DNA of 32,000 bases from Parasynechococcus marenigrum WH 8102. GTDB taxonomy: Bacteria; Cyanobacteriota; Cyanobacteriia; PCC-6307; Cyanobiaceae. The stretch's first letter is position 1, and each line of letters starts with the position of its first letter. Shown piece by piece: positions 5,185 through 31,051 of the stretch. The notes below the pieces were generated by a model. The model was not told the DNA's origin, searched no databases, and saw nothing but the letters and a program-made list of their open reading frames with translations. A program made the translations under genes and the position numbers. The DNA lies in NCBI RefSeq assembly GCF_000195975.1, contig NC_005070.1, forward strand, positions 2,100,001 through 2,132,000, written 5' to 3'.

Positions 5185-5219
5185 GCGGCCTAACCTCCCG
5201 CCAATCCGAGCCGCCGGCG

Positions 5220-13020: not shown

Positions 13021-13275
13021 ATGGCCGAAACCGACAGCAAGGCCCCCGCCAAGGCCAAACCGGCGGCCCTGCGCAAGGGCGCCCTGGTGAAAGTGAACCG
13101 TTCGGCTTACAACGACAGTCTTGAGGCGGCCGCCAGCGACCCCACTGCACCGGATTACATCTTCGAGGGTCCTGGGGAGCTGCTGCTGGTGAAAGGTGAC
13201 TACGGCCAGGTGCGTTGGAACCGGCCCGTACCGGATGTCTGGCTGCGGATGGATCAGTTGGAATCCTGCGGCTGA
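13021..13275 (+). CDS. ndhO: NAD(P)H-quinone oxidoreductase (NDH-1) subunit O
   Basis: 84 aa with [17 protein letters not shown]...P.YIF.G.GE...V.GDY..VRW..P.PDVWLR.DQLE. Colinear with cyanobacterial NdhO as I remember it. Confidence 0.8.
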
Positions 13276-15299
13276 CTCAAGGCGCCCTCCACCATCTCCA
13301 CCGCCTTGGGCACGCTGCTGATGGCTGAGGGCAAACGCCAGACGGCACCCCCGAGAACACCACTCAGATCGGCCAGCGCCATCAGAACGGGATTGTTCTG
13401 CTCGAACATGGCCTGATCTGCCACGGCCGATGCCGACCAGGGCATCCAGCCTGCGAGGAGCACCACGCTGCGATACGCCGCAGGCCAGGGACTCTGTGGC
13501 TGCAGCCTCTGCAACACAGCGAATTGTTCAGCAGCGGCAGCCGGGCGGTTGGCCAGCACCGCCAGCAGCGCCAGGCTCCAGCGAGCCTGCGCATGGTCAG
13601 GGTCTGCGGCGAGATGCTGCCGCGCCTGACGGTCCACCTGCTGGCGGTAGCTGAAATGGCCATCCAGCATGTGCTCCACCGCCACAGCGGAAAACACCGG
13701 ATCCAGGCCGGCGGGCCCCGCCGCCAAGCCCTGCGCCAGGGCGGGAAACGCGTCGGCGAAACCCACCGATACCGGTCGGTCCGAGCGGCGCCGCCAGAGG
13801 GAATAGCTGCCATCCTTCGGACGCGGGAAGCGCTGCACTTCCTCAAACACCCCGCTGCTGCGAACGGCACGGTCGAGCTTGCGCGCTGCCTTGCGAACTG
13901 ATCCCTGATCCCCCTCGGCCAGCACCACCCACTCCGCCCGGGCCAACACAGGGGTCCGATCCCGGCGGCTGCCCCCCAGCTGACGACCGACCAACCGACC
14001 GCCACCCCGACGGCCGTAATAGCTGACGTTGTGCTGGTTGAGATCCGGTGTGCTGGGCACCACGATCAGAGTGCGGGGCTCCACCGCGGGATCGGCACCA
14101 CCGGCAGCCTGCACCAGGGCCTGCAGCGGCCCCCGCGGCCGATCCTGCAAGCGCTCCAGTTGCAGGGTCCAACCCGCTGGAACACAGGCCAGAAGCCCCA
14201 ACCCCAGGATTGGGGTGGTCCAGCGAGAACGCCACTGCTGCAACCAGAGGCCCCACTGCCACCAACCGCGGCTGAGCAGCAGCAACAACGCCGGCAGCAG
14301 AGGGGCGATGTAGCGGTCGCCTTTATTCGGACTCAGGCTGGTGAGCAGCCAGGCCGCCAGCAGGTTGATCACCAGCCAGCGCCAGCACCAGCCGTCATCA
14401 CCAGCCGTCCTGGACCGCTGAGCGCACCAGAGAATCAGACCGGAGACTCCCACCACCAGCAACACAACCCCCAGCTGCTCCGGCAACAGCCGCGGATACC
14501 ACAACCAACTTTCCAAGCTCAGCAGGCCGGGATCTCCTTCACGGGCGGCGGACTCGAACACCGCGCGGTTCGTGCCCCCCAGGCTTGTGATCCAGTTGTG
14601 CCTGAGCCAAGGCAGAATTAGGCCTGACGCGAGCAACGGCAGCACCAGAGCTTGTCTCAACCAGGCTCCCCGGCGACGCAGGGCAATCCAGGCAGCCCAG
14701 CCCCCCGCCGGTGCCAGCGCCAGCAGGGCGCTCTGCTTCACCAGCACTGCTGCCAGCGCAACGACGGTTGCCCAAACAACCTGTCCCCAACGTCCACCGG
14801 TCCTGGGGTCACACCAGACGGACATCCTCCACAGAGCCAGGGTGACCACCGCCGCCAGCGGCATTTCCAGCACGTAGTCCGTCCGCAGATCCAACAGCGC
14901 CGGAGCCAGGGCCGTCAACAGACAAGCGAGCAGCGCCAGGCCTTCACCACGAAGCCGTAGCCCCCAACCGGCCACGGCCAGCAACAGCAACCCATGCCAG
15001 AGGCTGAGGCTCCAGGCGGCATTCGCCGGAGCATCACCGCTGATGGCCATCACGGTGCCATTCACCAGAGAGGCGAGCGGTGGAATCTTGGGGGAGAGAT
15101 CCAGCAGCGCTAACCAACCGTTCCAATCGCCACCGGGCAGCAATCCCAGGGCCCGGCCATGGTCGAGGGCACTGTTGAGGTAGTCCGCCTGATCCCAGGC
15201 GGGAACTCCGGACTGCTGCGTCCACCACAGACGATCCACCGCCGTGGCCAGCAGCCAGATCACGACCACCCAAAACCAAAACCGCCAGCGCCGGTTCAC
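13254..15299 (-). CDS. GT39/PMT_2-like (ArnT-type) polytopic membrane glycosyltransferase with C-terminal soluble helical domain
   Basis: GTG start overlapping the upstream stop (GTGA). Roughly 400 aa of repeated hydrophobic helices carry an early-loop acidic motif ([12 protein letters not shown]). After that comes a ~280 aa soluble, TPR-like tail. Confidence 0.65.
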
Positions 15300-16973: not shown

Positions 16974-18959
16974 TCAGAACCGGAAGACCGACTGAATCAA
17001 ACCACCAAAGATGCCGAAGGTCGATGCACCGTTCTGATCCTGATCACCGCTGAGGTTGGCGGTGTAGTGACCCAGAGGACGTGACATCCAGAACACCGAT
17101 GGCGTGATCTGAATGTTGTCGGTGACCTGGAAGGAGGCGTAGAGCTCCACGAGGTAATTGGCATCATTTGGGGAATAGCCACCGGCCAGCTCAGTCGCGA
17201 AGTTGGGCATACCGAAGCCGACACCAAGGTCGTTGCCGACATCGAACACGTCATCCCATTTGACGCCGACAAACCAGGACTGGCTGGCCACAGGGGAGTA
17301 CTTGAAGAATCCCGAACCCGTGATCGCACTGCGGGCATAGCCGACAGAGACGGAGGGAATCCATCCGGTTTCCTGGGGGACCCAATACCCGTTCAGAGCG
17401 AAGTTGTGGCTGTTGCGCTCACTGCGTTCAGCGATGTAATCGCCTTGATAAAGATCTTCTTCCGTCCAGTTCCAAACATCACGCCAGCATTCGTTGTTGA
17501 ATGAATCATCCATCATGAAATTGGTTCCACGGCGCTGGCCAGTGCCGCACTGGCCGTAGCGATACGCGAAGGCGACACCATATTCCTCGCCGCCCCAACC
17601 GGCCTGGACGAGGAAATTGCCGCGGGAATTGTTGGTGAACATGCCGCCAAGCACCGGATCACCATCACCACCGTCCTCTGCCAAGTAGTTCATCGAGACC
17701 GAGAACGCCGGATCTCCCTTGTTTTCAGTCTTCTCCTTATAAATCACACCGAACATCGCACCTGTGGCCTTGTTGTAGACATTCGGCACGCCAGCCAGTC
17801 CGGTCCAATCAAGGATGCGAGCTCCGCCACGGTTGTAGGCCGACGGCCACATCCCCAGGCTCTCAGTGTTTCTCGCCATTGGACCAACAATGAAGATCAG
17901 CGAGTGATCGATCAGTTCATCATTCTTCAGGGGGAAGCGGTAATACAAACGCCCTAAACCGAGAATATCTTCAGTACAAGGGGCGGTGCTTAGTTTTGTC
18001 AGAGACACACCGTCGCCAGCAAAGGCATTGTCGCAGAAGTTGCCTGCCGTGAAACTTGCGTAGAGGAGATCCTTTCCGGTGAATGAGGTCTTCAGGTTCA
18101 GCTTTTGCTCGTAGTTAAAGGTAAAGGCCCCGTATTGACTGTTGTAGGCGCGGGTACCACCTCCTGTGGCATCCTTTTTCCAGGATTTGTGATCTCGGAA
18201 TTTACGAGAACGAATGTCTTTGTAGTGCTTCTCGAGCTTAGTTCCCTTGATGATCTCAGTACCGCGTTTGCCGTCTTTTTCCTTCAGCGAACCATCGCGG
18301 TTGTGAACGGCTCGCCAGGCTTCACGGGTCCTCTGCCAGGAGCGACTGTTCTGCGTAGAGCCCAGGGGTGACTCACGACCGTCAATTTCAACAATCTGGT
18401 GTTTCCTATCGTAATTCCAGTAATACTTGGATCCATCGTTCGTGCCATAGGCCTTGGTGGAACCCATGGTGAAGGTGGTCTTGCCCTTCAACTTTGTCGT
18501 GGTTGAAAACTGACTGGCTTCGAGGGATCCAACGCGGTCCTCCAGCAGCATGATGCTGCCCGCCACGAAGTTGAGTTCAGATTCAAATTCCTTCAGCAGC
18601 TGCTCCACCTCTTCGGTCATCTCTGTGACACGATCGAGACAGGAGGCCAACAACGCCGCCGCTTCATAACGCGTGATTGGGATGTAGCCGCGGAAGCTGC
18701 CGTTCGGATAACCAGCCACACAGCCATAGGTTTTCACTAACCTCACCAGGGCCTGATAAGCCCAATCCGTTGGGTATACATCATTGAACTGATTAACACT
18801 GGTGACCTGCTGCAGCAGTTGCTTGGCCTGTTCAAGATCGAGGGTTGCAGAGTAATCCGCAACCGAGTCAATGTTGAGGTCCGCAGCTTGTGCCGAAAGG
18901 GGAGCAATCAAAAAAGTCAGCGCTGCTGGAGCGACCAAAAGGTGCTGGAGCAGTTTCAT
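16974..18959 (-). CDS. SLH-domain / OprB-type outer-membrane porin (Som-like), large variant with ~100 aa basic insertion
   Basis: Start is taken at ATG 18959. Signal peptide [28 protein letters not shown] motif [15 protein letters not shown]....[12 protein letters not shown]...[11 protein letters not shown] coiled-coil linker precedes a beta-barrel ending in the aromatic ..VFRF. Confidence 0.85.
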
Positions 18960-18973
18960 ACCAATCCCCTCAA

Positions 18974-18987
18974 CTTCCTGCAGGAAG
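18974..18987. promoter_or_regulatory. perfect 14-nt palindrome CTTCCTGCAGGAAG in the 5' leader of the large porin
   Basis: Read directly. It lies 15-28 nt upstream of ATG 18959, next to the GAGGGG Shine-Dalgarno-like element. It is only partly retained in the fossil copy at ~21014-21027. Confidence 0.3.
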
Positions 18988-19057
18988 CGTTTCAACAACA
19001 ACCCGAAGGTACCGGACTCAGAGAACGGCGCTAGCTCGTTAACCCATTGTTAAACAC

Positions 19058-19081
19058 AAAAAGCCCCCCTGAAAGGGGGGC
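19058..19081 (-). terminator. rho-independent terminator of porin 19133..20638
   Basis: Minus strand reads GCCCCCC-tttca-GGGGGGC followed by TTTTT. It sits 52 nt after the stop codon. Confidence 0.7.
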
Positions 19082-19132
19082 TGATCTGTGTGAGGAACAA
19101 GTCTGACAGCCAGACCGAAGTAGGGTTTTGGA

Positions 19133-20638
19133 TCAGAACTTAAAGACGGTCTGAACGACGCCACCCCACTGGGACGCATCATCCACACCCTGAGACTGCT
19201 CAGGCAGGTAGAAGACTGCTGGAATGACAGATACTTTTTTAGCAACCTTCAGCTTGAGGGAAGCTTCGAAAGCAAGTTCAGGAGCATCAGGGTCATCTCC
19301 CTTCTGAGAAACAACGTACTGAGGGGCACCGAAACCGACAGCAAGCTTGTGACTTGTGTCTGCAATCTTGTCCCACTGGAAGCCAACCATCCAACTAGCC
19401 AGTGTTTCAACGTCAGAACCCTCCAAGCTGGAGAATCCATAACCAGCGCTGATTGAGGGAATCAGGCCAGTCTCAGCAGGTTTCCAGAAGCCGTTGAAAG
19501 CAAAGTTATTGGAGTAAACGTCAGTGCCTTTGACGCAATCCTGAGCCTTATAGAAGCCAGTTCCAAAACCTGCCTTGCACTGTCCGTAGCGATAACCGAA
19601 AGCAAGACCCCACTTTTTAGATCCGTAACCGATCTGAGCAGTTGTGTTGGCACGTGAATTAGAGCCGAACATGCCACCTGCTGTGGGATCACTGTTCTCG
19701 GCTTCTCCGGCATCGGCGACGTAGTTCACAGCCGCAGTGAACTTGGGTTTGCCTTTAGCTACTTTCTGCTTCCAGATCAAGCCAACCAAACCGCCGGTTT
19801 CCTTGTTGTAGACGCCGGGAGTACCCCAGTGACCACCAAACATGTTGAGGGTCTTCACTTTGTAAGCTGTAGGTTTCATACCCAAGCTTTCAGTATTCCG
19901 AGCCAGAGGACCCGCGATGGCGGTCAGGCCTTTTGCAACAGGAAAACGATAGTAGAGACGATCAATTTCCATGGTGTTTCCAGACATTCCAGAAACATCC
20001 AACTTGCGCAGTCCGCCGGAGAAAGCAGATCCATCCTTCATGTTGCCGCCGCGCAGGCGGGTGAAGAGCAGATCTTTACCGGTGAAAGAGGTCTTAAGAC
20101 CCAAGCGGAGATCGTAAGAGAAACTCAGTGCGTCATAGACAGATTTATCTGCGTCGTCCTCAGAATTAATGGCACCTGTAACGAAGGTGGCCTTACCTTT
20201 CAGCTTTGTGGTGGTGGAGAACTGAGTGGCCGCCAGTTCGCCGACGCGAGCTTCCAGACCATCCACGCGCCCGCGGATCACAGCCAGCTCGGTTTCGAAT
20301 TCTTTGATCAGACGACGCAGCTCGTCGGTCACCTCGGTGATGCGGTCGAGGCAAGCGTTCAGCAGGGCAGCCGCTTCGTAGCGGGTCATGGCCCGGTTGC
20401 CAGCGAAAGTACCGTTGGGGTAGCCGGCGACGCAGCCGTAACGTTCGATCAGGTTGGCGAGAGCCTGGTAGGCCCAGTCAGTCGGGTAGACGTCGGAGAA
20501 CTGGGTGATGCTGGTGACCTGCTCTTCGGATGCCGCGTAGTCGGACACACCGTTGATGTTCAGGTCGGCTGCGTTGGCGCCGGAGGCCAGGAGGCCCAGG
20601 GCGGCAGGCGCAACCAGCAGTTGCTGGAAGAGTTTCAT
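19133..20638 (-). CDS. SLH-domain / OprB-type outer-membrane porin (Som-like)
   Basis: Start is taken at ATG 20638 ([23 protein letters not shown]). SLH motif [30 protein letters not shown], a coiled coil, and a barrel ending ..VFKF. GAGGA lies 8-12 nt upstream of the ATG. Confidence 0.9.
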   Translation of the reverse strand: MKLFQQLLVAPAALGLLASGANAADLNINGVSDYAASEEQVTSITQFSDVYPTDWAYQALANLIERYGCVAGYPNGTFAGNRAMTRYEAAALLNACLDRITEVTDELRRLIKEFETELAVIRGRVDGLEARVGELAATQFSTTTKLKGKATFVTGAINSEDDADKSVYDALSFSYDLRLGLKTSFTGKDLLFTRLRGGNMKDGSAFSGGLRKLDVSGMSGNTMEIDRLYYRFPVAKGLTAIAGPLARNTESLGMKPTAYKVKTLNMFGGHWGTPGVYNKETGGLVGLIWKQKVAKGKPKFTAAVNYVADAGEAENSDPTAGGMFGSNSRANTTAQIGYGSKKWGLAFGYRYGQCKAGFGTGFYKAQDCVKGTDVYSNNFAFNGFWKPAETGLIPSISAGYGFSSLEGSDVETLASWMVGFQWDKIADTSHKLAVGFGAPQYVVSQKGDDPDAPELAFEASLKLKVAKKVSVIPAVFYLPEQSQGVDDASQWGGVVQTVFKF

Positions 20639-20731
20639 GAGATTCCTCACACCTAAATTGAGGGAAGTGGACAGCAGTCCATAAGGAAAATACAGGCACA
20701 AGAAAACACTGCACAGGAGGCCGCGCTTTTA

Positions 20732-20762
20732 TGTGTCCATTACTACGCCTTAACTAATTTAA
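20732..20762 (-). promoter_or_regulatory. conserved upstream box shared with the paralog at 22897..22927 (putative promoter/operator)
   Basis: TGTGTCCATTACTAC..TAA.TAATTTAA is conserved between the two paralog upstream regions while flanking leader sequence has diverged. It lies ~95-125 nt upstream of the ATG. I cannot assign -10/-35 hexamers confidently. Confidence 0.35.
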
Positions 20763-20865
20763 GCTTAGGCTAAGAACCTAGATCGCTGATTGATGGCCAA
20801 AGACGACCAAGCTCACAAAAGGTGGGTTGAGGAAGAAAGCACAAGTGGAGATTCTTCGTTGCTAA

Positions 20866-20910
20866 TTGGAAAATTAAGTTGGACTTTACTTTAAGTAAGT
20901 ACCGTCAACA
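20866..20910 (-). pseudogene. decayed 3'-terminal stub (~15 codons) of a porin like 23030..24475
   Basis: Hand alignment of 20829-20912 with 22993-23071 gives about two-thirds identity with one 5-nt indel. The stop codon position has decayed to ttg. The preceding terminator keeps only its 3' arm (ggtgggtt at 20821). Confidence 0.45.
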
Positions 20911-20911
20911 T

Positions 20912-20999
20912 AATGTTGAGATCCTGAGCTTATGCTGTACGGGAGCAATCAAAATGTCAGGGCTGCCGGAGCGACCAAAAGGCCCTGGAGCAGTTTCAT
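20912..20999 (-). pseudogene. 5'-terminal stub of a large-porin paralog (signal peptide only, premature stop)
   Basis: The minus strand reads ATG AAA CTG CTC CAG GGC CTT TTG GTC GCT CCG GCA GCC CTG ACA TTT TGA, which translates [16 protein letters not shown]. The intact gene has [21 protein letters not shown]... A 1-nt deletion in the T-run causes the stop. The upstream leader 21000-21060 also aligns with 18960-19020. Confidence 0.6.
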
Positions 21000-21099
21000 A
21001 TCAATCTTCTCAAGCTCCTGCAGGAAGTGTCTCAACAAACCAAAGGCACCGAGAATCAGTAGTGGTGCTAAATAATTAACCCATTACTAAACGCAATAG

Positions 21100-21121
21100 A
21101 AAAGCCCCCCTTACGGGGGGC
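21100..21121 (-). terminator. rho-independent terminator of the frameshifted porin
   Basis: Minus strand reads GCCCCCC-gtaa-GGGGGGC followed by TTTT. It is homologous to the terminator at 19058..19081. Confidence 0.7.
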
Positions 21122-21171
21122 CGATCTATGTGGGGAACAATTCAGAAACCCCACCGAAGGCTGCTTAGGAA

Positions 21172-22802
21172 TCAGAACTTGAAGACCGTCTGAATAACAC
21201 CGCCCAGAACACCAACGGACTTGTCGTTGGGGGTCTCGAATCCATAAGGACGAGAGAGCCAATAGATGGCAGGGGTCACAGCAATTTTATTGGTGACTTG
21301 GAACTTGTACCAGAGCTCCATGGCATAGTTGCCATCGGCGACAAAATCACTTTCACCCCTGCGCTCAACTTTAGTCACGAACCGTGGCTGACCGATAGCA
21401 GCTCCAAGCGCGTTCTTCTTCTGGAAAACATCGTTCCAAGTGAGACCCACCATCCAAGAGGCCATTTCACGGATTTCAGTCGCACGCTCCCAGTCATCGT
21501 TGCCGTTGCTGTAGGAAGCACCAACACCTGCACTGATGGAGGGAATCATTCCTGATTCCTCAGGGCGCCAGAAGGCATGAACGGACCAGTTGTGACTATC
21601 GGCATCTGAACGAACTTCGTTGCCGTCTTTGTTTTCGACGGTGCAAGAAGTGTCGCCCTTACCTGCGAACTCTGTACCAGTACGGAATTTAGCTCCGCAC
21701 TGGCCGTAGCGATAACCAGCTGCAAGGCCCCATTTCTGGGTTCCATAGGCAATCTGGCTGGTGATGTTCGCTTCAGAGTTGTCGGTCATGAAGCCACCCG
21801 AATTGGGGTTGCTATCTTCACCTTCGCCGGAGTCAGCAACGTAGTTGGCTGCAAGAGTCCAGTAAGGATTGCCCTTGCCGGCGCTCTTCTTATTGGTGTA
21901 GATCAGACCGAAGCCACTTCCAGTTTCCTTGTTCCAGACGCCAGGAGTTCCCAGGGAACCACCGAAGAAGTCGAGAACCTTTTGACCACCCTTTGCATAA
22001 GCACTGGCTTTGTAGCCATCATCTCGGTGTTGCGAGTCAGAGCACCGACCTGAGCCTTGAATCCGTTGCCCAGGGGGAAGCGGTAATACAGGCGATCAAT
22101 CTCAACAGCGTTGCCACCGGGAGCACCAGTGTCAAGCTTGTTCAAACCAACACCTTCGCCATCCCAAGTGGAAGAACCACCTTGGTTGCCAACGCGTAGG
22201 CGAGTAAACAGCAGGTCCTTGCCGGTGAAGGAGGTTTTCAGACCCAAACGCAGGTCGTAGCTGAAAGTGAAAGCGCCCCAGTCGGCGTTGTAAGAGTCGC
22301 GCATGCCTTTGGGGTTATCACCAAGAGCATTGGTGGCACCCATGACGAAATTCGCCTTGCCTTTCAGCTTGGTGGTTGTGGAGAACTGAGTCGCCTCCAG
22401 TTCGCCAACGCGAGCTTCCAGACCGTCCACGCGGCCGCGGATCACAGCCAGCTCGGTTTCGAATTCATTGATCAGACGACGCAGCTGGTCGGTCACCTCG
22501 GTCACGCGGTCAAGGCAAGCGTTCACAAGGGCAGCCGCTTCGTAGCGGGTCATGGCCCGGTTGCCAGCGAAGGCACCGTTGGGGTAGCCGGCGACGCAGC
22601 CGTAACGCTCGATCAGGTTGGCAAGAGCCTGGTATGCCCAGTCAGTCGGGTAGACGTCGGAGAATTGGGTGATGCTGGTGACCTGCTCTTCGGATGCCGT
22701 GTAGTCGGACACACCGTTGATGTTCAGGTCGGCGGCGTTGGCGCCGGAGGCCAGGAGGCCCAGGGCGGCAGGCGCTACCAGCAGTTGCTGGAAGAGTTTC
22801 AT
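21172..22802 (-). pseudogene. SLH-domain / OprB-type porin interrupted by a single-nucleotide frameshift near 22003-22008
   Basis: ORFs 21903..22838 and 21172..21789 are the N- and C-terminal parts of one porin. Reading the -1 frame from ~22003 gives ..YAKGGQKVLDFFGGSLGTPGVWNKETGSGFGLIYTNKKSAGKGNPYWTLAANYVADSGEGEDSNPNSGGFMTDNSEAN.., which joins the two parts and is colinear with the paralog (..KPTAYKVKTLNMFGGHWGTPGVYNKETGG..). Confidence 0.75.
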
Positions 22803-22896
22803 GAGATTCCTCACACCAAAATTGAGGGAAGTGGACAAAAAGTCCCTCTGAAAGTTACTGGTGACGCAAAAGCATCCTTAAGCGGCCGCACAATTT

Positions 22897-22927
22897 TGTG
22901 TCCATTACTACTCTTTTAATAATTTAA
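22897..22927 (-). promoter_or_regulatory. conserved upstream box, paralogous to 20732..20762
   Basis: Same TGTGTCCATTACTAC..TAATAATTTAA block at the same distance from the ATG. Confidence 0.35.
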
Positions 22928-22962
22928 AAAAAGTTTAAGAGTCTAAGTAGCGATTAAAAGAC

Positions 22963-22990
22963 GAAAAAAAACCCACCGCAGAGCGGTGGG
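22963..22990 (-). terminator. rho-independent terminator of porin 23030..24475
   Basis: Minus strand reads CCCACCGC-tct-GCGGTGGG followed by TTTTTTTT. It sits 40 nt after the stop. Confidence 0.75.
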
Positions 22991-23029
22991 TTTAGGAATA
23001 AAGAACGGTTGGGAATTAACCGTTGATGA

Positions 23030-24475
23030 TCAGAAGGTGAAGGTGGTCTTCAGGTAAGCACCGTGAACATATTCACCAGTGAGGCTACCGGAATACTCAT
23101 CAATGATGAAGTAGGTCGGGGTAACGGTGATGTTGTCGGATACAGCAAACTTGTAGAAGATTTCCCACATTTTGTTGTAGTCATCTTCAACCTTAGGAGC
23201 CTGGCCGATGGCTGTACCGAATGAGTTGCCTGCTACGAACACATCAGACCACTCAAGGCCAACGTACCAGCCATGAATGTTTTCATCGGTGCCCTCAGGG
23301 TCAGACATTGACCAACCACCACTCACAGAGGGAATGATGCCAGCATCTGCAGGAGCCCATGCGGCTGCAAGGCTGTAACCATTACGGCTGTCGCCTTCCA
23401 CAGCGAAAGCTTTGTTGGTGCCAATAGTAAGGCCTACATTTTGTGCGTAGGCATAACCAGCTTGGGCCAAGAAGCTACCTTCAGCAACTTCACCTGAGTA
23501 GAAAAGCTGCCAAGAAGATGTGGATGCAGTTTCATCTTGACCGATGCTTTCTGATCCACTCCAAGCGACGTAGTTGCCGCTAAGTGAGAAGCCAGAGTCA
23601 CCAAACGAGTAAACGCCGCCCACGCCAGCACCAGCACCAGCCAAGTTGTTGGAGGCCCAAGCACCGCCGTAGGTGAAGAAGTCCAGCAGCAGGTCGGAAG
23701 GATAGAAGGTTGCATAGCCGGCGTACATACCAGCATCATCTGTCCGCACCACAGGACCAGCCGTTACGGTCAGGTTCTCACCAACTGGGAAGGTGTAATA
23801 CAAGCGACCAATCTTGACACTGCCGCCAGATGACATGGCAGTTTCAACAAATGTCAGACCTTCATCCCAGACAGAGGGACCAAAATTACCCGCCCGCAGG
23901 ACGGTGGTCAGCATGTCTTCGCCTGTGAAGGACGTCTTAAGGGCAAGACGAAGGTCGTAGTTGAAGGTGACAGCTTCACCCGCATCACCATCGAAACCTT
24001 CAGCAGCACCAAGAACCCACGCTGAATAACCCTTCAACTTGGTGGTGGTGGAGAACTGAGACGCTGAGAGTTCCCCAACGCGAGCCTCTAGACCGTCCAC
24101 TTTGCCGGCGATCATTGCGAGTTCCTTCTCGAACTCAGTAATAAGGCTCTTAAGTTGATCCGTCACCTCGGTGACGCGGTCGAGGCAGGCGTTCAGCAGG
24201 GCAGCAGCCTCATAGCGGGTCATGGCCCGGTTGCCACGGAAGGTGCCGTTGGGGTAGCCGGCCACACAGCCGTACTGCTCCACCAAATTGCTCAAAGCCT
24301 GATAGGCCCAGTCGGTGGGATAAACGTCAGAAAACTGGGTGACACTGGTGACCTGATCCTTTGAGGAAGAGGAGTACTCAGCAACACCATTGATGTTGAG
24401 CTGGGCGGCGTTAGCACCGGTGGCCAGAAGGCCAAGGGCAGCAGGAGCCACCAGCAATTGCTGGAAAAGCTTCAT
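23030..24475 (-). CDS. SLH-domain / OprB-type outer-membrane porin (Som-like)
   Basis: [23 protein letters not shown] signal peptide, SLH motif [30 protein letters not shown], a coiled coil, and a Gly/Ala/Ser-rich barrel ending ..TTFTF. Confidence 0.9.
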   Translation of the reverse strand: MKLFQQLLVAPAALGLLATGANAAQLNINGVAEYSSSSKDQVTSVTQFSDVYPTDWAYQALSNLVEQYGCVAGYPNGTFRGNRAMTRYEAAALLNACLDRVTEVTDQLKSLITEFEKELAMIAGKVDGLEARVGELSASQFSTTTKLKGYSAWVLGAAEGFDGDAGEAVTFNYDLRLALKTSFTGEDMLTTVLRAGNFGPSVWDEGLTFVETAMSSGGSVKIGRLYYTFPVGENLTVTAGPVVRTDDAGMYAGYATFYPSDLLLDFFTYGGAWASNNLAGAGAGVGGVYSFGDSGFSLSGNYVAWSGSESIGQDETASTSSWQLFYSGEVAEGSFLAQAGYAYAQNVGLTIGTNKAFAVEGDSRNGYSLAAAWAPADAGIIPSVSGGWSMSDPEGTDENIHGWYVGLEWSDVFVAGNSFGTAIGQAPKVEDDYNKMWEIFYKFAVSDNITVTPTYFIIDEYSGSLTGEYVHGAYLKTTFTF

Positions 24476-24679: not shown

Positions 24680-26284
24680 ATGTCCCCCCGGGTCCTGCGC
24701 GTCGCCGTTCTCTTCGCAGCCGTTCTGCTGGCGCTGCAGGCCTGGCGGTCCTGGGTGCTTCTGGCCAGTTACGACCAGGGAATCTTTCAGCAAGTGCTCT
24801 GGAACTGTCTCCAGGGTCATCCGTTTGAAAGCACCCTCTCCTCGCAGCTCTCCACGAATGTGATCCACGCCGGGGAGCTGCCTTCGGTCGATTACGAGCG
24901 GCTTGGCCAACATTTCACCCCCACTCTCCTGCTCTGGGCACCCCTTCTGGGGCTGATCGGAGGTGCCGCCCTGCCCCTGGTGCAGGTGGGACTGATCACG
25001 GCGGCTGGCCTCACATTGCATCGACTGGCCTTGGGTCTGCTGCCGGAACGCACTGCCAACTGGCTCACCTACGGCTTCTTTGCCGGCAATGCCCTGATCG
25101 GCCCCACGCTGGGGAACTACACCGACCTCTGCCAGCTGCCCCTGGCCGTGTTCCTCATGATGCTCGGCCTGGTGGAACGTCGCCGCTGGTGGATCACTGG
25201 GGCAGCCCTGTGGATCCCTTTGATTCGCGAGGACACCGGTGTGCTGCTGGTGGCTATCGGTCTGTGGCTGCTGCTGCGGCAACGGCAGCGCTGGCCATTG
25301 GCCATGGCCTTGATCGCCTGGGGTGGTGGTTGGGTGCTGATCTGCACCAGCCTGCTGATGCCGCTGTTCTCCGACGACAACGCCAAGCGGTTCATGGTGG
25401 AAAACTTCGGCCAGTACCTGGGGGACGAGAACAGCAGCTCAAGCCTCGGAATGGTGGGACACGCCCTGCGCCAGCCCCTGCTGCTGCTTCAGCAGTTGGT
25501 GGATCCACCGGGTCAAACCCTGCTGTATCTGCTCGGCCACGGCCTGCCCTTTCTGTTCGTCCCTCTCATCAGCCTCGACACCTGGCTGCTGGCGGGCCCC
25601 AGTCTGCTCGGGCTGTTTCTGGCCCAGGGGGCCAACGACCCCCTCTCGATCACCATCCGCTACACGCTGCTGGTGGTGCCGGGATTCGCCCTTGGCGCTC
25701 TGTTCTGGTGGCAGCGTCGGCCAAAACCCAACCCTGGAGCGCGAACCCGCCTGGCCTGGGGAGCTGCCCTCAGCCTCTCTCTGCTGCTGACGGTCAGCAG
25801 CAACCCTCACCGCAGCCTTTCCTTCCTGATCCCGGACAGCATTGATCCCTGGGTGTACAGCGCCCCATTGCGTCAGTGGAACCATGGCGTCACCGCTCGC
25901 CAGGCCCTGTCCGTCATCCCCGACGATGGCTCGGTGGCCGCCAATACCCCCCTGGTGCCGCTACTCGCCAGACGCGCCGTCCTCGTGCGTTTCCCATTCG
26001 CCACGGGCTATCTGGATCGATCCGGATCATCCCAGCAGGTGGACTGGATCGCCGTTGATCTCGAGCAGCTCGAGCAATACGGAGTTGCTTTCAGAGGCGA
26101 CTGGAAACAGCTGCGCAACGCTCGCCGCTGGCTGGCGGCCCACCGCGACAGCCATCGGGTGCAGGCCATCAACAGTGGTGTGGTGGTGCTGCAGCGCAAT
26201 GGGATTGAGCATCCCGACCTTGAAGCCGCACTCGATCGACAGCTGGATCGACCACTCCCTGCCGACCCACGTCGGCGTTCCTGA
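24680..26284 (+). CDS. DUF2079-type polytopic membrane protein (GT-C-like), paralog a
   Basis: About 10 or more hydrophobic helices followed by a soluble C-terminal domain. Motifs are YDQGIFQQVLWN, LGQHFTPTLLLWAPL and PLIREDTGVLL. Start is taken at ATG 24680; the track's GTG at 24656 is the alternative. Confidence 0.75.
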   Translation: MSPRVLRVAVLFAAVLLALQAWRSWVLLASYDQGIFQQVLWNCLQGHPFESTLSSQLSTNVIHAGELPSVDYERLGQHFTPTLLLWAPLLGLIGGAALPLVQVGLITAAGLTLHRLALGLLPERTANWLTYGFFAGNALIGPTLGNYTDLCQLPLAVFLMMLGLVERRRWWITGAALWIPLIREDTGVLLVAIGLWLLLRQRQRWPLAMALIAWGGGWVLICTSLLMPLFSDDNAKRFMVENFGQYLGDENSSSSLGMVGHALRQPLLLLQQLVDPPGQTLLYLLGHGLPFLFVPLISLDTWLLAGPSLLGLFLAQGANDPLSITIRYTLLVVPGFALGALFWWQRRPKPNPGARTRLAWGAALSLSLLLTVSSNPHRSLSFLIPDSIDPWVYSAPLRQWNHGVTARQALSVIPDDGSVAANTPLVPLLARRAVLVRFPFATGYLDRSGSSQQVDWIAVDLEQLEQYGVAFRGDWKQLRNARRWLAAHRDSHRVQAINSGVVVLQRNGIEHPDLEAALDRQLDRPLPADPRRRS

Positions 26285-26295
26285 ACAAAACGATG

Positions 26296-26321
26296 CCCCC
26301 GATCGGAAGACCGACCGGGGG
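26296..26321. terminator. GC-rich hairpin between operon genes 1 and 2 (weak or partial terminator, or processing site)
   Basis: CCCCCGaTCGG-aaga-CCGAcCGGGGG with one A.C mismatch. T-runs on either strand are short and not immediately adjacent, so it is not a canonical terminator. Confidence 0.35.
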
Positions 26322-26467
26322 CTCTCGCCGAGTCCGCTTTTGCCGCGGAACCGGATGATCAGTTAGAAGGCGCCGTTCAGCCGGCGTTCTCCGCGATCAG
26401 CAGACCCTGCATGAAAGAACTGGATTGCATGGACACCTCCTCCTGAAAGGGTTGATGAGCGCCGGTG

Positions 26468-28057
26468 ATGCATTCGGTGGTGTCCAGGACCCAAAGGTCC
26501 GAAGATGCCACCACACCACTGCGGTCGGGACCCTTGAACCCTAACGGAGGTGTCAAAACTTTGGCGAAGCTGCTGGATCAACAGCGCTGGCTGATGCCAC
26601 TGCTGCTCTGGCTGCTCACGCTGATGCTCTGGCTGCCGGGTCTGGGCAACCTGCCGCTGCGCGACTGGGATGAAGGGCGCGTGGCCACGGTGGCCCGCTC
26701 CAGCACCAACCTGCTGCCGATGAAATGGCAGCAGCCCTACCTCAACAAACCCCCCGGTCTTCACGCCCCCATGGGCCAGCTGATCCGTGCCCACGGAGAG
26801 CAGGACGCCCTGGTGCGACTGCTGCCGGCCCTGCTCTCCACGCTGGCGGTCCCCCTGATCGTGCTAATACGCAGGGATCTCAACGGTCCCGACCGGCACC
26901 GCCGGGCCCTGCTGGCGGGGGTGGTGTTAATGACCCTGCTGCCCATGGCCCGTCACGGCCGGCTGGCGATGTTGGACGGCACGCTGGTGAGTTGCAGCCT
27001 GCTGCTGTGGTGGAGCTGGATCCGGGGCCGTCAGCATCCCCTGGCTGCTCTGAGCGCAGGGATCGCCGGCAGTGGCGTGTTGCTGCTGAAACCACCGGCA
27101 CTGCTGGGGTTGGGCCTGATCGCCCTGGTTGTGGGCGGCCGCAACAGCTGGCCGCGCTGGCGCGGCTGGATCGGCCTCAGCCTGGGACTGCTGCCCGGAC
27201 TGAGCTGGCATCTCTGGCACTGGAGTGTGCGCGGCGACGATGCGCTGCTTATGTGGGGCGGCCAGGGACTGGCCCGGATCACCAGCAGCGTCGGCGATGG
27301 CCACGGCTGGTGGACCCCATGGGTGGAGGTGCTGGAAGGTGGTTGGCCCTGGCTGCTGCTGCTGCCCATCGGTCTGCACTGGGCCTGGCGGCAACGCCAC
27401 AACAGCGCCGGGCGCTGGGAACTGGGGCTGCTCCTCGGCAGTGCCGCCCTGGTGCTGCCGCTCCGCACCCAGTTGCCCTGGTACAGCCACCTGCTCTGGC
27501 CGCCTCTGGCCCTGCTCTGCGCCGAAGGGCTGGCTCAACTGCTCGACTCCGGGGCGCCCCGCTGGGTGGGCCGGTGCTGGCAGGTTCTCGGCCTTGGACT
27601 GAGCCTGGCTGGATTGGGCACGTTGGTGATCCGCGAGCCACAACTGCCGAGCCTCAGCCTGCTGCTGGCGGGGTTCGGGCTGTTGGCTGGAGGCCAAGCC
27701 ATCAGACATCCCCAGCCCCAGCGGCGGCGACGCGGGCTGGCGATCCTGGTGATCGCCTGGGGCCTGGCGCTGCTGGCCCTTTGGCACAGCCGCCTCTGGC
27801 TGTGGGAGCTGAATGAAAGCTGGGATCCACGGCCTGTGGCCGCTCAGGTGCGAACACTGCCGGCCGATGCGTCCGTTTGGCTGAAGGGGCCCACCCGGCC
27901 GTCCCTCGGCTGGTATGCGGGCCGAAACCTGCTGCAGTACCGCAAGAGTGAGCCACCCAAGGGGCCCTACTGGCTGGTGAGCAACAAGCCGATGCCGGGC
28001 TGCCTGCCGAGCCAGGACCCGGCCAGAGGTGAATGGCAGCTGTGGAAATGCCAATGA
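26468..28057 (+). CDS. ArnT/PMT-like (GT39/GT83-type) polytopic membrane glycosyltransferase
   Basis: The first periplasmic-loop acidic motif LPLRDWDEGRVATVARS follows the first helix, and hydrophobic helices run throughout. The start is uncertain: ATG 26468 or in-frame TTG 26561, which has GGAGG 10 nt upstream. Confidence 0.7.
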   Translation: MHSVVSRTQRSEDATTPLRSGPLNPNGGVKTLAKLLDQQRWLMPLLLWLLTLMLWLPGLGNLPLRDWDEGRVATVARSSTNLLPMKWQQPYLNKPPGLHAPMGQLIRAHGEQDALVRLLPALLSTLAVPLIVLIRRDLNGPDRHRRALLAGVVLMTLLPMARHGRLAMLDGTLVSCSLLLWWSWIRGRQHPLAALSAGIAGSGVLLLKPPALLGLGLIALVVGGRNSWPRWRGWIGLSLGLLPGLSWHLWHWSVRGDDALLMWGGQGLARITSSVGDGHGWWTPWVEVLEGGWPWLLLLPIGLHWAWRQRHNSAGRWELGLLLGSAALVLPLRTQLPWYSHLLWPPLALLCAEGLAQLLDSGAPRWVGRCWQVLGLGLSLAGLGTLVIREPQLPSLSLLLAGFGLLAGGQAIRHPQPQRRRRGLAILVIAWGLALLALWHSRLWLWELNESWDPRPVAAQVRTLPADASVWLKGPTRPSLGWYAGRNLLQYRKSEPPKGPYWLVSNKPMPGCLPSQDPARGEWQLWKCQ

Positions 28058-29460
28058 AACCACCCCGCCAGCTCTGGGGTCTTGCCGTCGGTCTGGGGCT
28101 GATCGGTTGGGGCTGCAGCGCCCTGCGGCATGCCCTACTGCACAGCAACGCCTACGACCTGGGCCTGTTTGACCAGTGGGTCTGGCTGATCAGCCAGGGG
28201 CTGCCACCGATCTCCTCGATGGAGCACGTTCACGTGCTGGCGGATCACGGTGCCTGGCTGCTGTACGGCACCGGTTTGCTCTACGAGCTGATCCCATCGG
28301 TGCAGTGGCTGCTGGCGGCCCAAGCCCTGGCCCTGAGTCTCACGGCCATCCCGATCTGGTGGCTGGCGCAGCAGGCTGGCGTCTCCAGACACGGCTGCTG
28401 GCTGGCATGCGGACTGTGGTGGCTGCAGCCCGTCGTCTTCAACACTCTGCTGTTCGATGTGCACCCGGAAACGTGGGTGATGCCCGCCTTCGCCTGGGCC
28501 CTCTGGGCCGAACGGGCCCAACGCCCGCGCCTGTGGTTGGCCCTGCTGCTGGTGATGCTGGGGGCCCGAGATGGGCTGGTGCTGGTGCTCGGCGGCATGG
28601 GGCTCGATCTGGCATGGCGCCAGCGCTGGCGGTGGAGTGCCGCCGTCAGCGGGCTGGCGGCGGGCTGGTTGCTGCTGCTGAGTCGGTGGCTCTATCCCTG
28701 GCTGCGCGATGGCGAAGGCCCCAAGGCCGCCGCTCGCATGTTCAGTCATCTCAGCGGCGGGCCGATGCAGATCCTGCAGAGCCTCGACTGGAGCGGAGGC
28801 CTTCAGTACCTGGGGCTGCTCTGCCTGCCCTGCATCTGGCTCTGGCGACGGCGATCACTGCCAACCCTGCTGATCGCCCTGCCCCTGGTGCTGGTCAATC
28901 TGCTGTCGGCCTCCGCCAGCTACCGCACCCTGGTGCATCACTACAGCCTGCCTCTGGCGCTGGTCGCCGTGCTGGCGGCCATTGATGGGGGGTTGGCAGC
29001 GGGTCGACCCCGCCATCGACTTCCCAGGAGCCTGATCTGGGCGACAGCCTGCTGGCTGGCCCTGGCCAAACCCTGGTTCTTCACAGGGCCCTACCTGCAG
29101 CGGCTGCCGCATCTGCCCTCAACTCAGGAAGCCATGGCCGAGGTGCATCCGAACGCCGCAGTGCTCACCACGAGTTACCTCGTACCGCACCTCAGCCAGC
29201 GCCGCCGGATCGCCTTCCCCAAAGCCTCCTTCAACCGTGAACTCAGCGATCAAGACTGGACGGTGCTGCTGCTGAACCCGACCGACCCAGGCTGGGGTTC
29301 CACCAGAAAGGTGCAACGGCGGCTGATCGATCAGGCTGAACGCGATGACTGGCACTGCCGGGATTGGCCCTCGGGCCTGACCCTCTGCAGATCATCGGAA
29401 CCTGAGCACGCTGAACGACTCCATGGCCTCGCTTCAGACCCCAGACCCCCGTTCAGCTGA
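28054..29460 (+). CDS. DUF2079-type polytopic membrane protein (GT-C-like), divergent paralog b
   Basis: ATG 28054 overlaps the upstream stop as ATGA. Motifs are SNAYDLGLFDQWVWL, FDVHPETWVMP, GARDGLVLVL, and a C-terminal ..VLTTSYLVPHLSQRRRIAFP. Confidence 0.7.
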   Translation: MKPPRQLWGLAVGLGLIGWGCSALRHALLHSNAYDLGLFDQWVWLISQGLPPISSMEHVHVLADHGAWLLYGTGLLYELIPSVQWLLAAQALALSLTAIPIWWLAQQAGVSRHGCWLACGLWWLQPVVFNTLLFDVHPETWVMPAFAWALWAERAQRPRLWLALLLVMLGARDGLVLVLGGMGLDLAWRQRWRWSAAVSGLAAGWLLLLSRWLYPWLRDGEGPKAAARMFSHLSGGPMQILQSLDWSGGLQYLGLLCLPCIWLWRRRSLPTLLIALPLVLVNLLSASASYRTLVHHYSLPLALVAVLAAIDGGLAAGRPRHRLPRSLIWATACWLALAKPWFFTGPYLQRLPHLPSTQEAMAEVHPNAAVLTTSYLVPHLSQRRRIAFPKASFNRELSDQDWTVLLLNPTDPGWGSTRKVQRRLIDQAERDDWHCRDWPSGLTLCRSSEPEHAERLHGLASDPRPPFS

Positions 29461-31051
29461 GTCGGCGCAACAGCGTGTCCATCTGGCCGCAGCACTGTTC
29501 GTGCTGATCGGCTGCGCCTTGCAGTGGTGGCGCATGCAATCCCTTACAGCCTCCATGGACCAGGGCATCCTGATGCAGGTGCTCTGGAACGGCCTGCGGG
29601 GGCACCCCTTTGAAAGCACGCTCTCGTCGCAGCTGTCCACCAACGTGATCCACAGCGGTGAGCTGCCCGCCCTCGGTTACCACCGGCTCGGGCAGCACTT
29701 CACCCCAATCCTGGCGTTGTGGATTCCGCTGGTGGGGCTGCTGGGGAAATGGGCCCTTCCGATGCTGCAGGTGGTGCTGATCACCGCTGCTGGGCTCGTG
29801 CTGCACCGGTTGGCGCAACAGCAGCTCAAGCCCGACCTGGCGGCCATGGTCACCATCGCGTTCTACGGCGCCAATGCGGTGATCGCGCCCTGCATGCTCA
29901 GCAACTTCACCGATCTCAGTCAGCTGCCGTTGTGCGTGTTTCTGCTGCTGCTGGGGCTGGAGCGCCAGCAGCGCTGGCTCACATGGGCAGCCGCTCTGGC
30001 CATTCCCCTGATTCGGGAGGACACCGGCGTTGTGCTGATGGGAGTTGGGATCTGGCTGGGTCTGCGCCGTAAGGGGCGCTGGCCGATGGCCGTGACATTG
30101 ATCCTGTTCGGTGGCGGATGGGTGGCCCTGTCCACCAACGTTCTGATGCCGTTGTTCAGCGCAGACAACGCCCAACGGTTCATGGTGGAGAACTTCGGGC
30201 AATACCTGGAAGGCCGCGACCAGGCCAGCAGCCTGGAGGTGCTTGGGCTGGTGCTGCGCCAGCCCCTGGTTCTGCTGCGCGAACTGGTGTCGCCACCGGG
30301 CAACACCATCACCTACCTACTGGCCCAGGGCTTACCGCTGATCCTGGTGCCCTTCATCTCGATCGACAGCTGGCTGCTGATGGGGCTGCCACTGCTGGGG
30401 TTGCTACTGGCCCAGGGCTTCAACAATCCGCTGTCCATCAGCATCCGTTACACCTATCTAGTGGTGCCGGGGCTGTTCGCTGGAGCCGTGCTCTGGTGGC
30501 GCAGCCGTCAGGTGCTGTTCGAATCTCGCCGCCTGCGCCGGATCTGGGCTGGCGCCATCGCCCTGTCCTGTTTGTTCACCGTGACGGCCAATCCAAACCA
30601 GAGCTTGTCCTGGATGATTCCAGACAGCATCCAACCTTGGATCTACCGGGATCCCGTGGCCCAGTTCCGCCATGGCCAGCGGGCCCTTGCTTTGATCCAG
30701 ACCATTCCAGATAACAGCAGCGTTGCGGCCACCACGGGCCTGATCCCCCACCTGGCCAATCGTGAAGTATTGATCCGCTTTCCTTACAACGACCGTTATC
30801 AGAATCAGGACGGCCAACCCGTTCCGGTGGAATGGGTTGCGGCCGATCTCCACAACCAACGCCTGTTTCAGACGTTTCGAAAACAGCGCAAAGGTCTGAA
30901 ACGCAATCTTCGACAGATCAATAAGTTGTCGGATCAGGGGTATGGCGTTGTTGCCTTCGACGATGACGTCGTCCTGCTGCAACGACAGGCCCAAATCAAT
31001 GCAGGGGCACAACTGGCGTTCAATGCACTCTCTGAATCTTTGAATTTCTGA
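29423..31051 (+). CDS. DUF2079-type polytopic membrane protein (GT-C-like), paralog c
   Basis: Colinear with paralog a along its whole length. Shared blocks are QVLWNGLRGHPFESTLSSQLSTNVIHSGELP, LGQHFTPILALW, IPLIREDTGVVL and MPLFSADNAQRFMVENFGQYL. It overlaps gene b by 38 nt. Confidence 0.75.
   Translation: MASLQTPDPRSAESAQQRVHLAAALFVLIGCALQWWRMQSLTASMDQGILMQVLWNGLRGHPFESTLSSQLSTNVIHSGELPALGYHRLGQHFTPILALWIPLVGLLGKWALPMLQVVLITAAGLVLHRLAQQQLKPDLAAMVTIAFYGANAVIAPCMLSNFTDLSQLPLCVFLLLLGLERQQRWLTWAAALAIPLIREDTGVVLMGVGIWLGLRRKGRWPMAVTLILFGGGWVALSTNVLMPLFSADNAQRFMVENFGQYLEGRDQASSLEVLGLVLRQPLVLLRELVSPPGNTITYLLAQGLPLILVPFISIDSWLLMGLPLLGLLLAQGFNNPLSISIRYTYLVVPGLFAGAVLWWRSRQVLFESRRLRRIWAGAIALSCLFTVTANPNQSLSWMIPDSIQPWIYRDPVAQFRHGQRALALIQTIPDNSSVAATTGLIPHLANREVLIRFPYNDRYQNQDGQPVPVEWVAADLHNQRLFQTFRKQRKGLKRNLRQINKLSDQGYGVVAFDDDVVLLQRQAQINAGAQLAFNALSESLNF

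Follow-up and report, generated by a model that had tools for sequence, protein, structure and literature searches.

Predicted GT-C membrane glycosyltransferases, including three DUF2079 paralogs, in a conserved cluster beside the SLH porin genes of Parasynechococcus marenigrum WH 8102

What a row of large membrane proteins is doing next to the porin genes of a marine picocyanobacterium is the question raised by a stretch of 32,000 nucleotides (the window) from Parasynechococcus marenigrum WH 8102 (contig NC_005070.1, positions 2,100,001 to 2,132,000). Four large plus-strand genes in this window, here called g1 to g4, adjoin an array of genes for porins with SLH and OprB domains; g1, g3 and g4 encode DUF2079 proteins, and g2 encodes an ArnT-like protein. 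We consider it probable that the four are inner-membrane GT-C glycosyltransferases, organized in two units that are split by a small gene on the opposite strand, and that they act on an acceptor in the cell envelope. The coordinates of all features, as positions in the window, are collected in Table 1.

An earlier interpretation made without database searches (the sequence-only reading) had described four polytopic open reading frames (ORFs) on one strand, three of them DUF2079 paralogs and one an ArnT/PMT-like enzyme, and this description was borne out. The DUF2079 profile PF09852 spans g1, g3 and g4 from profile position 1 to 459, with 456, 332.5 and 431 bits, respectively (gathering threshold 28.2). 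The g2 protein exceeds the cutoff of the Pfam PMT profile (27.4 bits against 22.7, with partial coverage of positions 84 to 195 out of 245) and falls below that of PMT_2 (23.6 bits against 26.1); many of its orthologues carry precomputed matches to both profiles, and its relatives are labelled ArnT family or GT39 in sources. A strict hydropathy scan found 4 to 9 membrane segments per protein, making all four polytopic. As simple hydropathy counting gives too few membrane helices, helix counts were taken from structure models instead; g1 and g2, the only two proteins modelled, each showed well over a dozen helices.

The AlphaFold2 model of g2 (mean predicted local distance difference test score, pLDDT, 88; predicted template modelling score, pTM, 0.88) was matched by Foldseek to ArnT (PDB 5F15) with an E-value of 7.7e-13, template modelling (TM) scores of 0.71 and 0.70, and a root mean square deviation of 4.6 Å, in an alignment of 560 columns that covers 529 and 541 residues. 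Other GT-C enzymes (STT3, AglB, ALG12, Emb, and AftA) ranked far below ArnT among the fold matches. In the g2 family, residues D66, W67, D68, and E69 of the first loop, which lie in the motif RDWDEGR, are at least 90% conserved, while K94-P95-P96, D170, R255, R270, and Y339 are invariant, as are the C-terminal residues C512 and C528, with which a periplasmic disulfide would fit. No ArnT match was detectable when the PDB was searched with g2 by sequence or by profile. By its model, g2 has an ArnT-like architecture, with a membrane part and a C-terminal periplasmic domain; by its score against the ArnT equivalog (see below), it is no orthologue of ArnT.

The same matches bear on the idea that these enzymes are protein O-glycosyltransferases in the style of PMT or TMTC, working on porins, pilins, or the motility protein SwmA. 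Both g2 and a fifth GT-C-like gene, on the other flank of the porins, match Pfam PMT (the fifth with 26.6 bits against the cutoff of 22.7), and the PMT structures 6P25 and 9I5L are among the fold matches of g2. The fifth protein also shows a weak TPR match (TPR_16, below cutoff), and the pairing of a GT-C domain with TPR repeats also characterizes the eukaryotic TMTC proteins. Against ArnT, however, g2 reaches its TM score of 0.71 over all 560 columns, as opposed to about 0.3 over 256 to 273 columns against PMT, and its C-terminal domain is compact and of the ArnT type, with no MIR or TPR domain detected by Pfam or in the model. We regard a protein acceptor as unlikely.

For the DUF2079 proteins, the g1 model (pLDDT 76, pTM 0.79) was searched against the PDB in the same way. 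The first 17 matches were all GT-C proteins (ArnT, STT3, ALG12, ALG9, AglB, PglB, and AftA), with probabilities of 0.91 to 1.00, E-values from 2.4e-4 to 4.6e-2, and TM scores of up to 0.47. They were followed by PIG-U, the GT-C-like subunit of the glycosylphosphatidylinositol transamidase, and then by unrelated transporters at probabilities below 0.1. Based on this model, DUF2079 is best read as a family of the GT-C fold without characterized members, and, with the fold of g2 added, the best reading of all four proteins is that of GT-C glycosyltransferases.

Conservation within the family is consistent with such a role. Across 74 diverse DUF2079 proteins, D32, P228, and R432 are invariant (74 out of 74), and Q38, H78, Q102, and Y328 are at least 90% conserved; g1, g3, and g4 all keep the conserved residues, including D32, H78, and R432. 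D32 lies 7 residues past the first transmembrane helix (residues 3 to 25 in the g1 model). An acid in the loop directly after this helix is the classic catalytic position, and a hallmark, of GT-C enzymes. The arginines at N-terminal positions 4 and 7 suggest that this loop is periplasmic. The family signature comprises xDLGIFDQ, which holds the loop Asp and Gln, followed by GDH, D-F-H-P-E, and PHLSHR with the invariant Arg. Only g3 among the three paralogs keeps the D-F/V-H-P-E motif (as FDVHPE), which is replaced by N-Y/F-T-D-L in g1 (NYTDLCQLP) and g4 (NFTDLSQLP). These motifs, like WDEGR in g2, are present as the sequence-only reading gave them, and the paralog relationships that it proposed agree with the alignments: g1 and g4 are colinear with 55% identity over about 507 residues, while g3 shares 24-27% identity with either. 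By comparison of the sequences, g1 and g4 form part of a derived DUF2079 subgroup. Orthologues of g1 show 66-98% identity.

The arrangement of the genes raises the question of whether they are expressed together. The overlaps reported earlier are both present: an ATGA at 28054-28057 serves as g2 stop and g3 start, and g3 and g4 overlap by 38 nucleotides, given ATG 29423 as the start of g4. The order porins-g1-g2-g3-g4-psbD, with an identical g4 protein and with psbD on the minus strand after g4, recurs in the complete NCBI genomes LN847356.1 and CP047955.1 as well as in metagenome contigs from an estuary, which shows it to be genuine and no artefact of assembly. We take LN847356 to be Synechococcus sp. 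WH 8103, which belongs to clade III and is closely related to WH8102. A recent horizontal transfer of g4, suggested by its lower GC content and a best match of about 67% among species representatives, was considered and rejected, because its GC content at third codon positions (GC3, 0.772) equals that of g1 (0.774) and because the layout recurs in two complete genomes.

The start of g2 had been placed at ATG 26468 (ATGCATTCGG), and the longest ORF, beginning at 26465 or 26468, indeed encodes 529-530 amino acids. This ATG falls within a conserved minus-strand element, however, which is kept even where g2 is not adjacent, and the first approximately 40 residues of the long form are missing from most orthologues. 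The gene call in LN847356.1 begins at the equivalent of TTG 26561, which in the window is preceded by GGAGG 10 nucleotides upstream. TTG 26561 is thus the most likely start, so that the gap between g1 and g2 extends over about 26285-26560. Of the structured RNA-like gap assigned to 26285-26467, the structure was upheld and the extent was not.

The minus-strand element in this gap consists, in order, of a Shine-Dalgarno sequence, a short ORF, a conserved 3' region, and a GC-rich terminator hairpin. The Shine-Dalgarno sequence AGGAGGAGG at 26444-26436 is followed six bases further on by an ATG, which opens a 17-codon ORF (26430-26377) that encodes MQSSSFMQGLLIAENAG and ends with a stop codon. 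The terminator stem (26322-26295) is a 12-bp hairpin with 10 GC pairs and a subsequent T-run, and ends just past the stop codon of g1. The structured RNA, about 185 nucleotides including a GGAGG site, aligns over its full length across genomes of marine Synechococcus subcluster 5.1 and freshwater subcluster 5.2, and its predicted fold was better than 200 out of 200 shuffles (z = -3.39), with compensatory changes in the terminator stem. No indels disturb the frame of the ORF across the aligned loci, and its start is ATG or GTG. The peptide follows the pattern M.SS...QGLLIAENAG up to the stop: its N-terminal half varies, while 36 loci share the same final 33 nucleotides of the ORF. In the fold prediction this invariant half forms one arm of a long stem, which explains why synonymous changes are missing there. 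Both complete NCBI genomes have a called minus-strand ORF of 44 amino acids at this site, which is an upstream extension of the same frame.

Of 95 loci collected by this stage, 84 are picocyanobacterial (80 from a scan with g1 and 4 from a look-up of exact g4 matches); fuzzy matching located a copy of the element in 55 of the 95. A covariance model, against which the window copy scores 163 bits, added full-length diverged copies in single-cell genomes of Prochlorococcus, with the frame and stop position kept, and found no copy in the fetched loci of subcluster 5.3 or of other cyanobacteria. Copies thus occur in loci of Synechococcus 5.1 and Cyanobium/Vulcanococcus, and in a part of those from Prochlorococcus. 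Of 52 placements, 51 put the element directly downstream of a GT-C gene and on the strand opposite to it, be that gene g1, a g4-like gene, g3, or a PMT-like gene. No Rfam family matched anywhere in the window at the gathering threshold; a known RNA family was discarded as an explanation when a permissive scan returned only a partial, terminator-like match to P15 (E 0.03), and the passages of a 2005 comparative screen for non-coding RNAs that matched our search terms do not mention the element. We conclude that it is a separate minus-strand gene and not a plus-strand leader; both its RNA and its peptide may be functional.

Two transcription units are therefore most likely, judging from the gene layout. 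The small gene in the gap, which converges on g1 and ends in a terminator of its own, makes the single four-gene operon that had been proposed doubtful, and g1 is probably transcribed separately; a run on one strand with neither gene nor terminator in between is interrupted at g1-g2. Within the second unit, the overlaps between g2, g3, and g4 imply translational coupling and make their co-expression near-certain.

Conservation of the cluster was assessed in a set of 80 related loci, all picocyanobacterial, which were mapped with the window proteins. In marine subcluster 5.1 the order is epimerase, PMT-like gene (-), dnaJ (-), cysK (-), porins (-), g1 (+), small gene (-), g2 (+), g3 (+), a variable gene, and psbD (-). 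Freshwater 5.2 genomes have porins (-), PMT-like gene (+), g2 (+), a single DUF2079 gene (+), and the small gene (-), and in some of them g2 is absent here and the PMT-like gene adjoins the DUF2079 gene. Single-cell genomes grouped here with Prochlorococcus show porin, g2, a distinct DUF2079 gene, g3, the small gene (-), and a g4-like gene. Many genomes have a single DUF2079 gene at the locus. The clustering of GT-C genes was kept across Synechococcus 5.1, Cyanobium, and some Prochlorococcus, and the local association of a PMT/ArnT-like gene with DUF2079 is thus old and persistent. The sequence-only reading had named three computable outcomes that would count against it, namely a missing GT-C fold, a missing acid in the first loop, and genes scattered in related genomes; none of these was found, with the loop Asp present in 74 out of 74 DUF2079 proteins and conservation of at least 90% for D66, D68, and E69 among g2 and its family.

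In the Cyanobium/Vulcanococcus loci (L020-L048 and L073-L077), the PMT-like gene (with a TPR match), g2, and the DUF2079 gene stand head-to-tail beside the porins, while the marine 5.1 genomes have the PMT-like gene in reversed orientation and moved beyond dnaJ, cysK, and the porins. Set against each other, these two orders suggest an ancestral locus of three GT-C genes in a row.

The DUF2079 complement itself varied considerably. Distance-based clustering separated at least 6 DUF2079 classes at these loci, and the combination of g1, g3, and g4 was confined to the strain group of the window (the window and loci L092-L095). When the slot between g3 and psbD was compared at equivalent positions in loci L001-L019 and L053-L079, it held a plus-strand gene of the g1/g4 type in the strain group of the window; in other 5.1 species, it held one or two minus-strand genes of other DUF2079 classes, or was empty. 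In this respect the slot resembles a cassette site that takes up enzymes for surface glycans, and the differences in DUF2079 number and type between lineages fit enzymes that diversify a surface glycan.

More distant DUF2079 contexts were inspected in eight individual look-ups. At locus L081, with GT9 genes nearby, the gene is flanked by a GT2 and methyltransferase pair on one side and a PTPS_related membrane protein on the other; at L085 it adjoins a methyltransferase, near a polysaccharide deacetylase; and at L082 it lies two genes upstream of an 819-amino-acid PMT_2 protein, one independent case of a DUF2079 gene near a PMT_2 gene. Loci L086 and L088, on contigs with photosystem and other cyanobacterial genes, each carry a lone DUF2079 gene among housekeeping genes, with no porin nearby. 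At L090 (2721-6775), a DUF2079 gene for 669 amino acids is translationally coupled to two large downstream ORFs of 711 and 641 amino acids, the second of which extends as far as the contig end; the first of these has no Pfam match on record, and both may represent further uncharacterized envelope proteins. Ten long DUF2079 proteins, in which a clue from a fusion partner was sought, showed no second Pfam domain above cutoff, and no plasmid-borne homologues with annotated context were matched. Overall, these contexts support a general role in envelope-glycan synthesis, though not a specific link to SLH porins.

The variability described above also raises the possibility that there is no joint system at all, and that these genes are neighbours by descent that serve different acceptors, or that some of the paralogs are redundant or inactive. 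The break between g1 and g2 by an unrelated convergent gene would be in line with this, as would the changing composition of the cluster (the absence of g2 at some 5.2 sites, the single DUF2079 gene in many genomes, and the turnover in the slot) and the mostly solitary occurrence of DUF2079 elsewhere. The overlapping g2, g3, and g4 are almost certainly expressed together, however, PMT-like and DUF2079 genes have stayed adjacent through several rearrangements and lie near each other in the unrelated L082, and all paralogs keep the invariant residues of the family. We give independent enzymes some weight, as a minority possibility.

The most conspicuous neighbours of the cluster are the four porin genes, and the sequence-only reading had named the ligand of the SLH domains first among the possible targets of the enzymes. 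According to this idea, the GT-C enzymes would build or decorate the pyruvylated, peptidoglycan-linked polysaccharide to which these domains bind, so that the porin and GT-C neighbourhood as a whole would serve to tether the outer membrane. SLH porins of Synechocystis bind such a polysaccharide and thereby hold the outer membrane (bioRxiv 10.1101/2020.03.24.006684), and the adjacency of four SLH+OprB genes to the cluster is kept in Synechococcus 5.1, Cyanobium, and some Prochlorococcus. In addition, batteries of GT-C enzymes make wall-linked polymers in mycobacteria, and Emb and Aft structures are among the fold matches. This adjacency is seen only in one lineage with a strongly conserved gene order, however, and DUF2079 genes occur without a nearby porin in other cyanobacteria. 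Further, the porins are transcribed divergently from g1 and differ strongly from it in base composition, and Pfam scans of plausible ORFs of at least 90 amino acids found no csaB-like pyruvyl transferase or other wall-polymer gene in the window. The tie to the SLH ligand is not supported, and we consider this acceptor, too, improbable. The statement that GT-C genes bracket the porins needs a similar reservation: a fifth GT-C-like gene does lie on the other flank, but DnaJ-like and CysK-like genes separate it from the porins, making the bracket a loose one.

How the enzymes might work can be sketched from better-known GT-C enzymes (ArnT, PglB, Gtr, and Emb/Aft), whose mechanistic basis is summarized in PMC11127046. 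By analogy, each enzyme would receive its sugar on a polyprenyl-phosphate carrier, once this has been flipped to face the periplasm, and would pass the sugar on to an envelope acceptor; the Asp of the first loop would take part in catalysis. Synthesis and flipping of the donors would be encoded elsewhere in the genome. Our best guess for the acceptor, and a tentative one, is lipopolysaccharide (LPS), to which g2 could add a sugar on lipid A or core in the style of ArnT or Rgt, and to which the DUF2079 paralogs could add further, lineage-variable residues. In the passages of PMC4515613 that summarize Snyder et al. (2009), the lipid A of WH8102 and CC9311 is described as carrying no phosphate and a single galacturonic acid at C4'; passages of the same article give the LPS core of both strains as an alpha-1,4-glucose chain with no 3-deoxy-D-manno-oct-2-ulosonic acid (Kdo) and no heptose. 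A fuller scenario, in which g2 and the DUF2079 paralogs assemble or decorate this unusual LPS in the periplasm, the variable slot yields diversity driven by phages or grazers, and the small gene regulates the cluster, strikes us as a long shot. A search of cyanophage-resistance papers gave no match to the term for ArnT-like genes.

Several observations weigh against the interpretation as envelope glycosyltransferases, or against parts of it. The fold match of DUF2079 is moderate (the best four hits have TM scores of 0.43-0.47 and E-values of about 1e-4, with a model of mean pLDDT 76). Comparison of DUF2079 with ArnT-like profiles by hhalign gave probabilities of 2.8% and 0.7%, that is, no homology, and a profile search of the PDB with DUF2079 returned only a marginal ALG12 match (E 0.02) that was lost with a more diverse profile. 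The searchable literature on DUF2079, PF09852, or COG3463 holds no experiment on any member. Against the NCBIfam ArnT equivalog (NF009784), g2 scores 17.9 bits where the cutoff is 567, and it is therefore not a 4-amino-4-deoxy-L-arabinose (L-Ara4N) transferase. No polyprenyl-phosphate-sugar synthase or flippase was found in the window by the Pfam scans described above, in which the sole GT2 was a cytoplasmic-type GT2-TPR protein 18 kb away, with no GtrA-like protein; lacking donor synthase, flippase, and csaB-type gene, the system is locally incomplete. The lone DUF2079 genes of other cyanobacteria mean that context says little about the acceptor, and the assignment to LPS is one of chemical plausibility only. 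Finally, as the plus strand shows no T-run behind the gap hairpin, some read-through from g1 to g2 is possible.

Some of these points would equally suit polytopic proteins of the envelope with another function, for example a polymerase or ligase resembling Wzy or WaaL, or a transporter of lipid carriers. A weak Wzy_C match on g3 (19 bits, cutoff 31.7) could be taken in this sense, as could the missing profile link between DUF2079 and characterized GT-C enzymes and the lack of biochemical data on the family. The Wzy_C match is below threshold and restricted to one paralog, however, while all significant structural matches are to GT-C proteins or PIG-U, transporters stay below a probability of 0.1, and an invariant Asp follows directly on the first transmembrane helix. 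We therefore consider a non-transferase function very improbable, and retain the interpretation of all four proteins as candidate GT-C glycosyltransferases.

Table 1. Positions of the GT-C cluster and associated features in the 32,000-nucleotide window.
Feature	Position	Strand	Description
g1	24680..26284	+	DUF2079 membrane protein, 534 aa, g1/g4 subgroup; Pfam PF09852 E 2.2e-136
gap element	26286..26475	-	conserved small gene/structured RNA, convergent with g1
g2	26561..28057	+	ArnT-like, predicted GT-C glycosyltransferase, 498 aa from probable TTG start
g3	28054..29460	+	DUF2079, 468 aa, canonical subgroup; Pfam PF09852 E 6.7e-99
g4	29423..31051	+	DUF2079, 542 aa, slot variable between species; Pfam E 8.5e-129
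fifth GT-C-like gene	13254..15299	-	681 aa, PMT-like N-terminal membrane domain, weak C-terminal TPR match
SLH+OprB (Som-type) porin array	16974..24475	-	Pfam SLH and OprB
porin genes	16974-19001; 19133-20701; 21172-21789 + 21903-22838 (split gene); 23030-24475	-	

The porin array showed features of its own. One of its genes is split into two ORFs (at 21172-21789 and 21903-22838), one with SLH and the N-terminal portion of OprB and the other with the C-terminal portion. In LN847356.1 (L093) this gene is intact and encodes 543 amino acids, the estuary contig L094 has the same split, and in CP047955.1 it is split differently, which may point to a polymorphic pseudogene or to phase variation. The array has a GC content of 0.52-0.58 and a GC3 of 0.56-0.68, compared with 0.61-0.68 and 0.74-0.83 in its flanks, which could reflect expression-linked codon usage, amino-acid composition, or a foreign origin. 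No paper was found to mention SYNW2228-2231, the WH8102 locus tags neighbouring the porins. Further envelope-related genes upstream in the window encode a GH3 (NagZ-like) hydrolase (3472-5184), the GT2-TPR protein mentioned above (5220-6422), a protein with a weak LpxB-like match (10592-11761), and an NAD-dependent epimerase (DUF1731; 11978-12907). An ORF of 549 amino acids on the minus strand (5190-6839) is probably a shadow ORF of high GC content, as it has no Pfam match and overlaps the GT2-TPR gene.

The assembly of LPS and envelope glycans in picocyanobacteria is largely unknown, although the surfaces of these highly abundant phototrophs set phage adsorption, grazing, and outer-membrane stability. 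The locus provides candidate genes for this process, one ArnT-like and up to four DUF2079 paralog classes, and the residues D32, H78, and R432 offer a first residue-level hypothesis for a family of about 7,200 clusters (7,182 representatives at 50% identity in a profile search with E-values of up to 1e-3). The variable DUF2079 slot may serve as a testable marker of surface diversification, and the gap holds a small gene that lacks annotation and is common to Synechococcus 5.1, Cyanobium, and some Prochlorococcus.

The understanding of how GT-C enzymes work stays unchanged by these results: the cluster is a conserved set of a known mechanistic class, with no sign of a new mechanism, and can be placed by comparison with systems already described. 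For the DUF2079 model, the eukaryotic mannosyltransferases ALG9 and ALG12 (GT22; PDB 9S6S and 9S6T), which use dolichyl-phosphate mannose, rank fourth and sixth with TM scores of 0.40-0.46; they belong to a different domain of life and have a different acceptor, and the sequence match to ALG12 is not significant. In mycobacteria, several GT-C paralogs (EmbA/B/C, AftA/B/D, PimE, and Mpt) build one polymer stepwise from polyprenyl-phosphate sugars, and Emb, Aft, and PimE structures are among the fold matches of the window models. These matches are weaker than those to ArnT, however, no carbohydrate-binding modules were detected in the proteins studied here, and the organism is a diderm cyanobacterium.

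The Gtr systems consist of the flippase GtrA, the polyprenyl-phosphate-sugar synthase GtrB, and a serotype-specific GT-C enzyme, and include GT136 pentofuranose systems (PMC11127046). The resemblance lies in a GT-C enzyme that acts after export with lipid-linked monosaccharide donors, and that forms the variable, specificity-determining part, paralleling the turnover of DUF2079 genes in the slot after g3. The present cluster differs in that it has no synthase or flippase in the window, contains several GT-C genes, and belongs to the chromosomal core instead of being phage-borne; Gtr and GT136 enzymes are also of another family than DUF2079.

For g2, the closest comparison is with ArnT of Cupriavidus metallidurans (GT83; PDB 5F15 and 5EZM). 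The predicted folds match over the full length, and both proteins combine a polytopic membrane domain with a small C-terminal domain in the periplasm, and have an acidic D-W-D-E cluster in the first periplasmic loop with K-P-P soon after. Identity is only 16%, however, and since the lipid A of marine Synechococcus offers no phosphate for L-Ara4N, both donor and acceptor of g2 must differ from those of ArnT. A further, hypothetical precedent is found in RgtA-D of Rhizobium, ArnT-family enzymes that modify lipid A or core with galacturonic acid, for which polyprenyl phosphate serves as the donor carrier. Apart from the RgtE-like donor synthase, which is missing from the window, their chemistry would fit an ArnT-like enzyme in an organism whose phosphate-free lipid A carries galacturonic acid at C4'.

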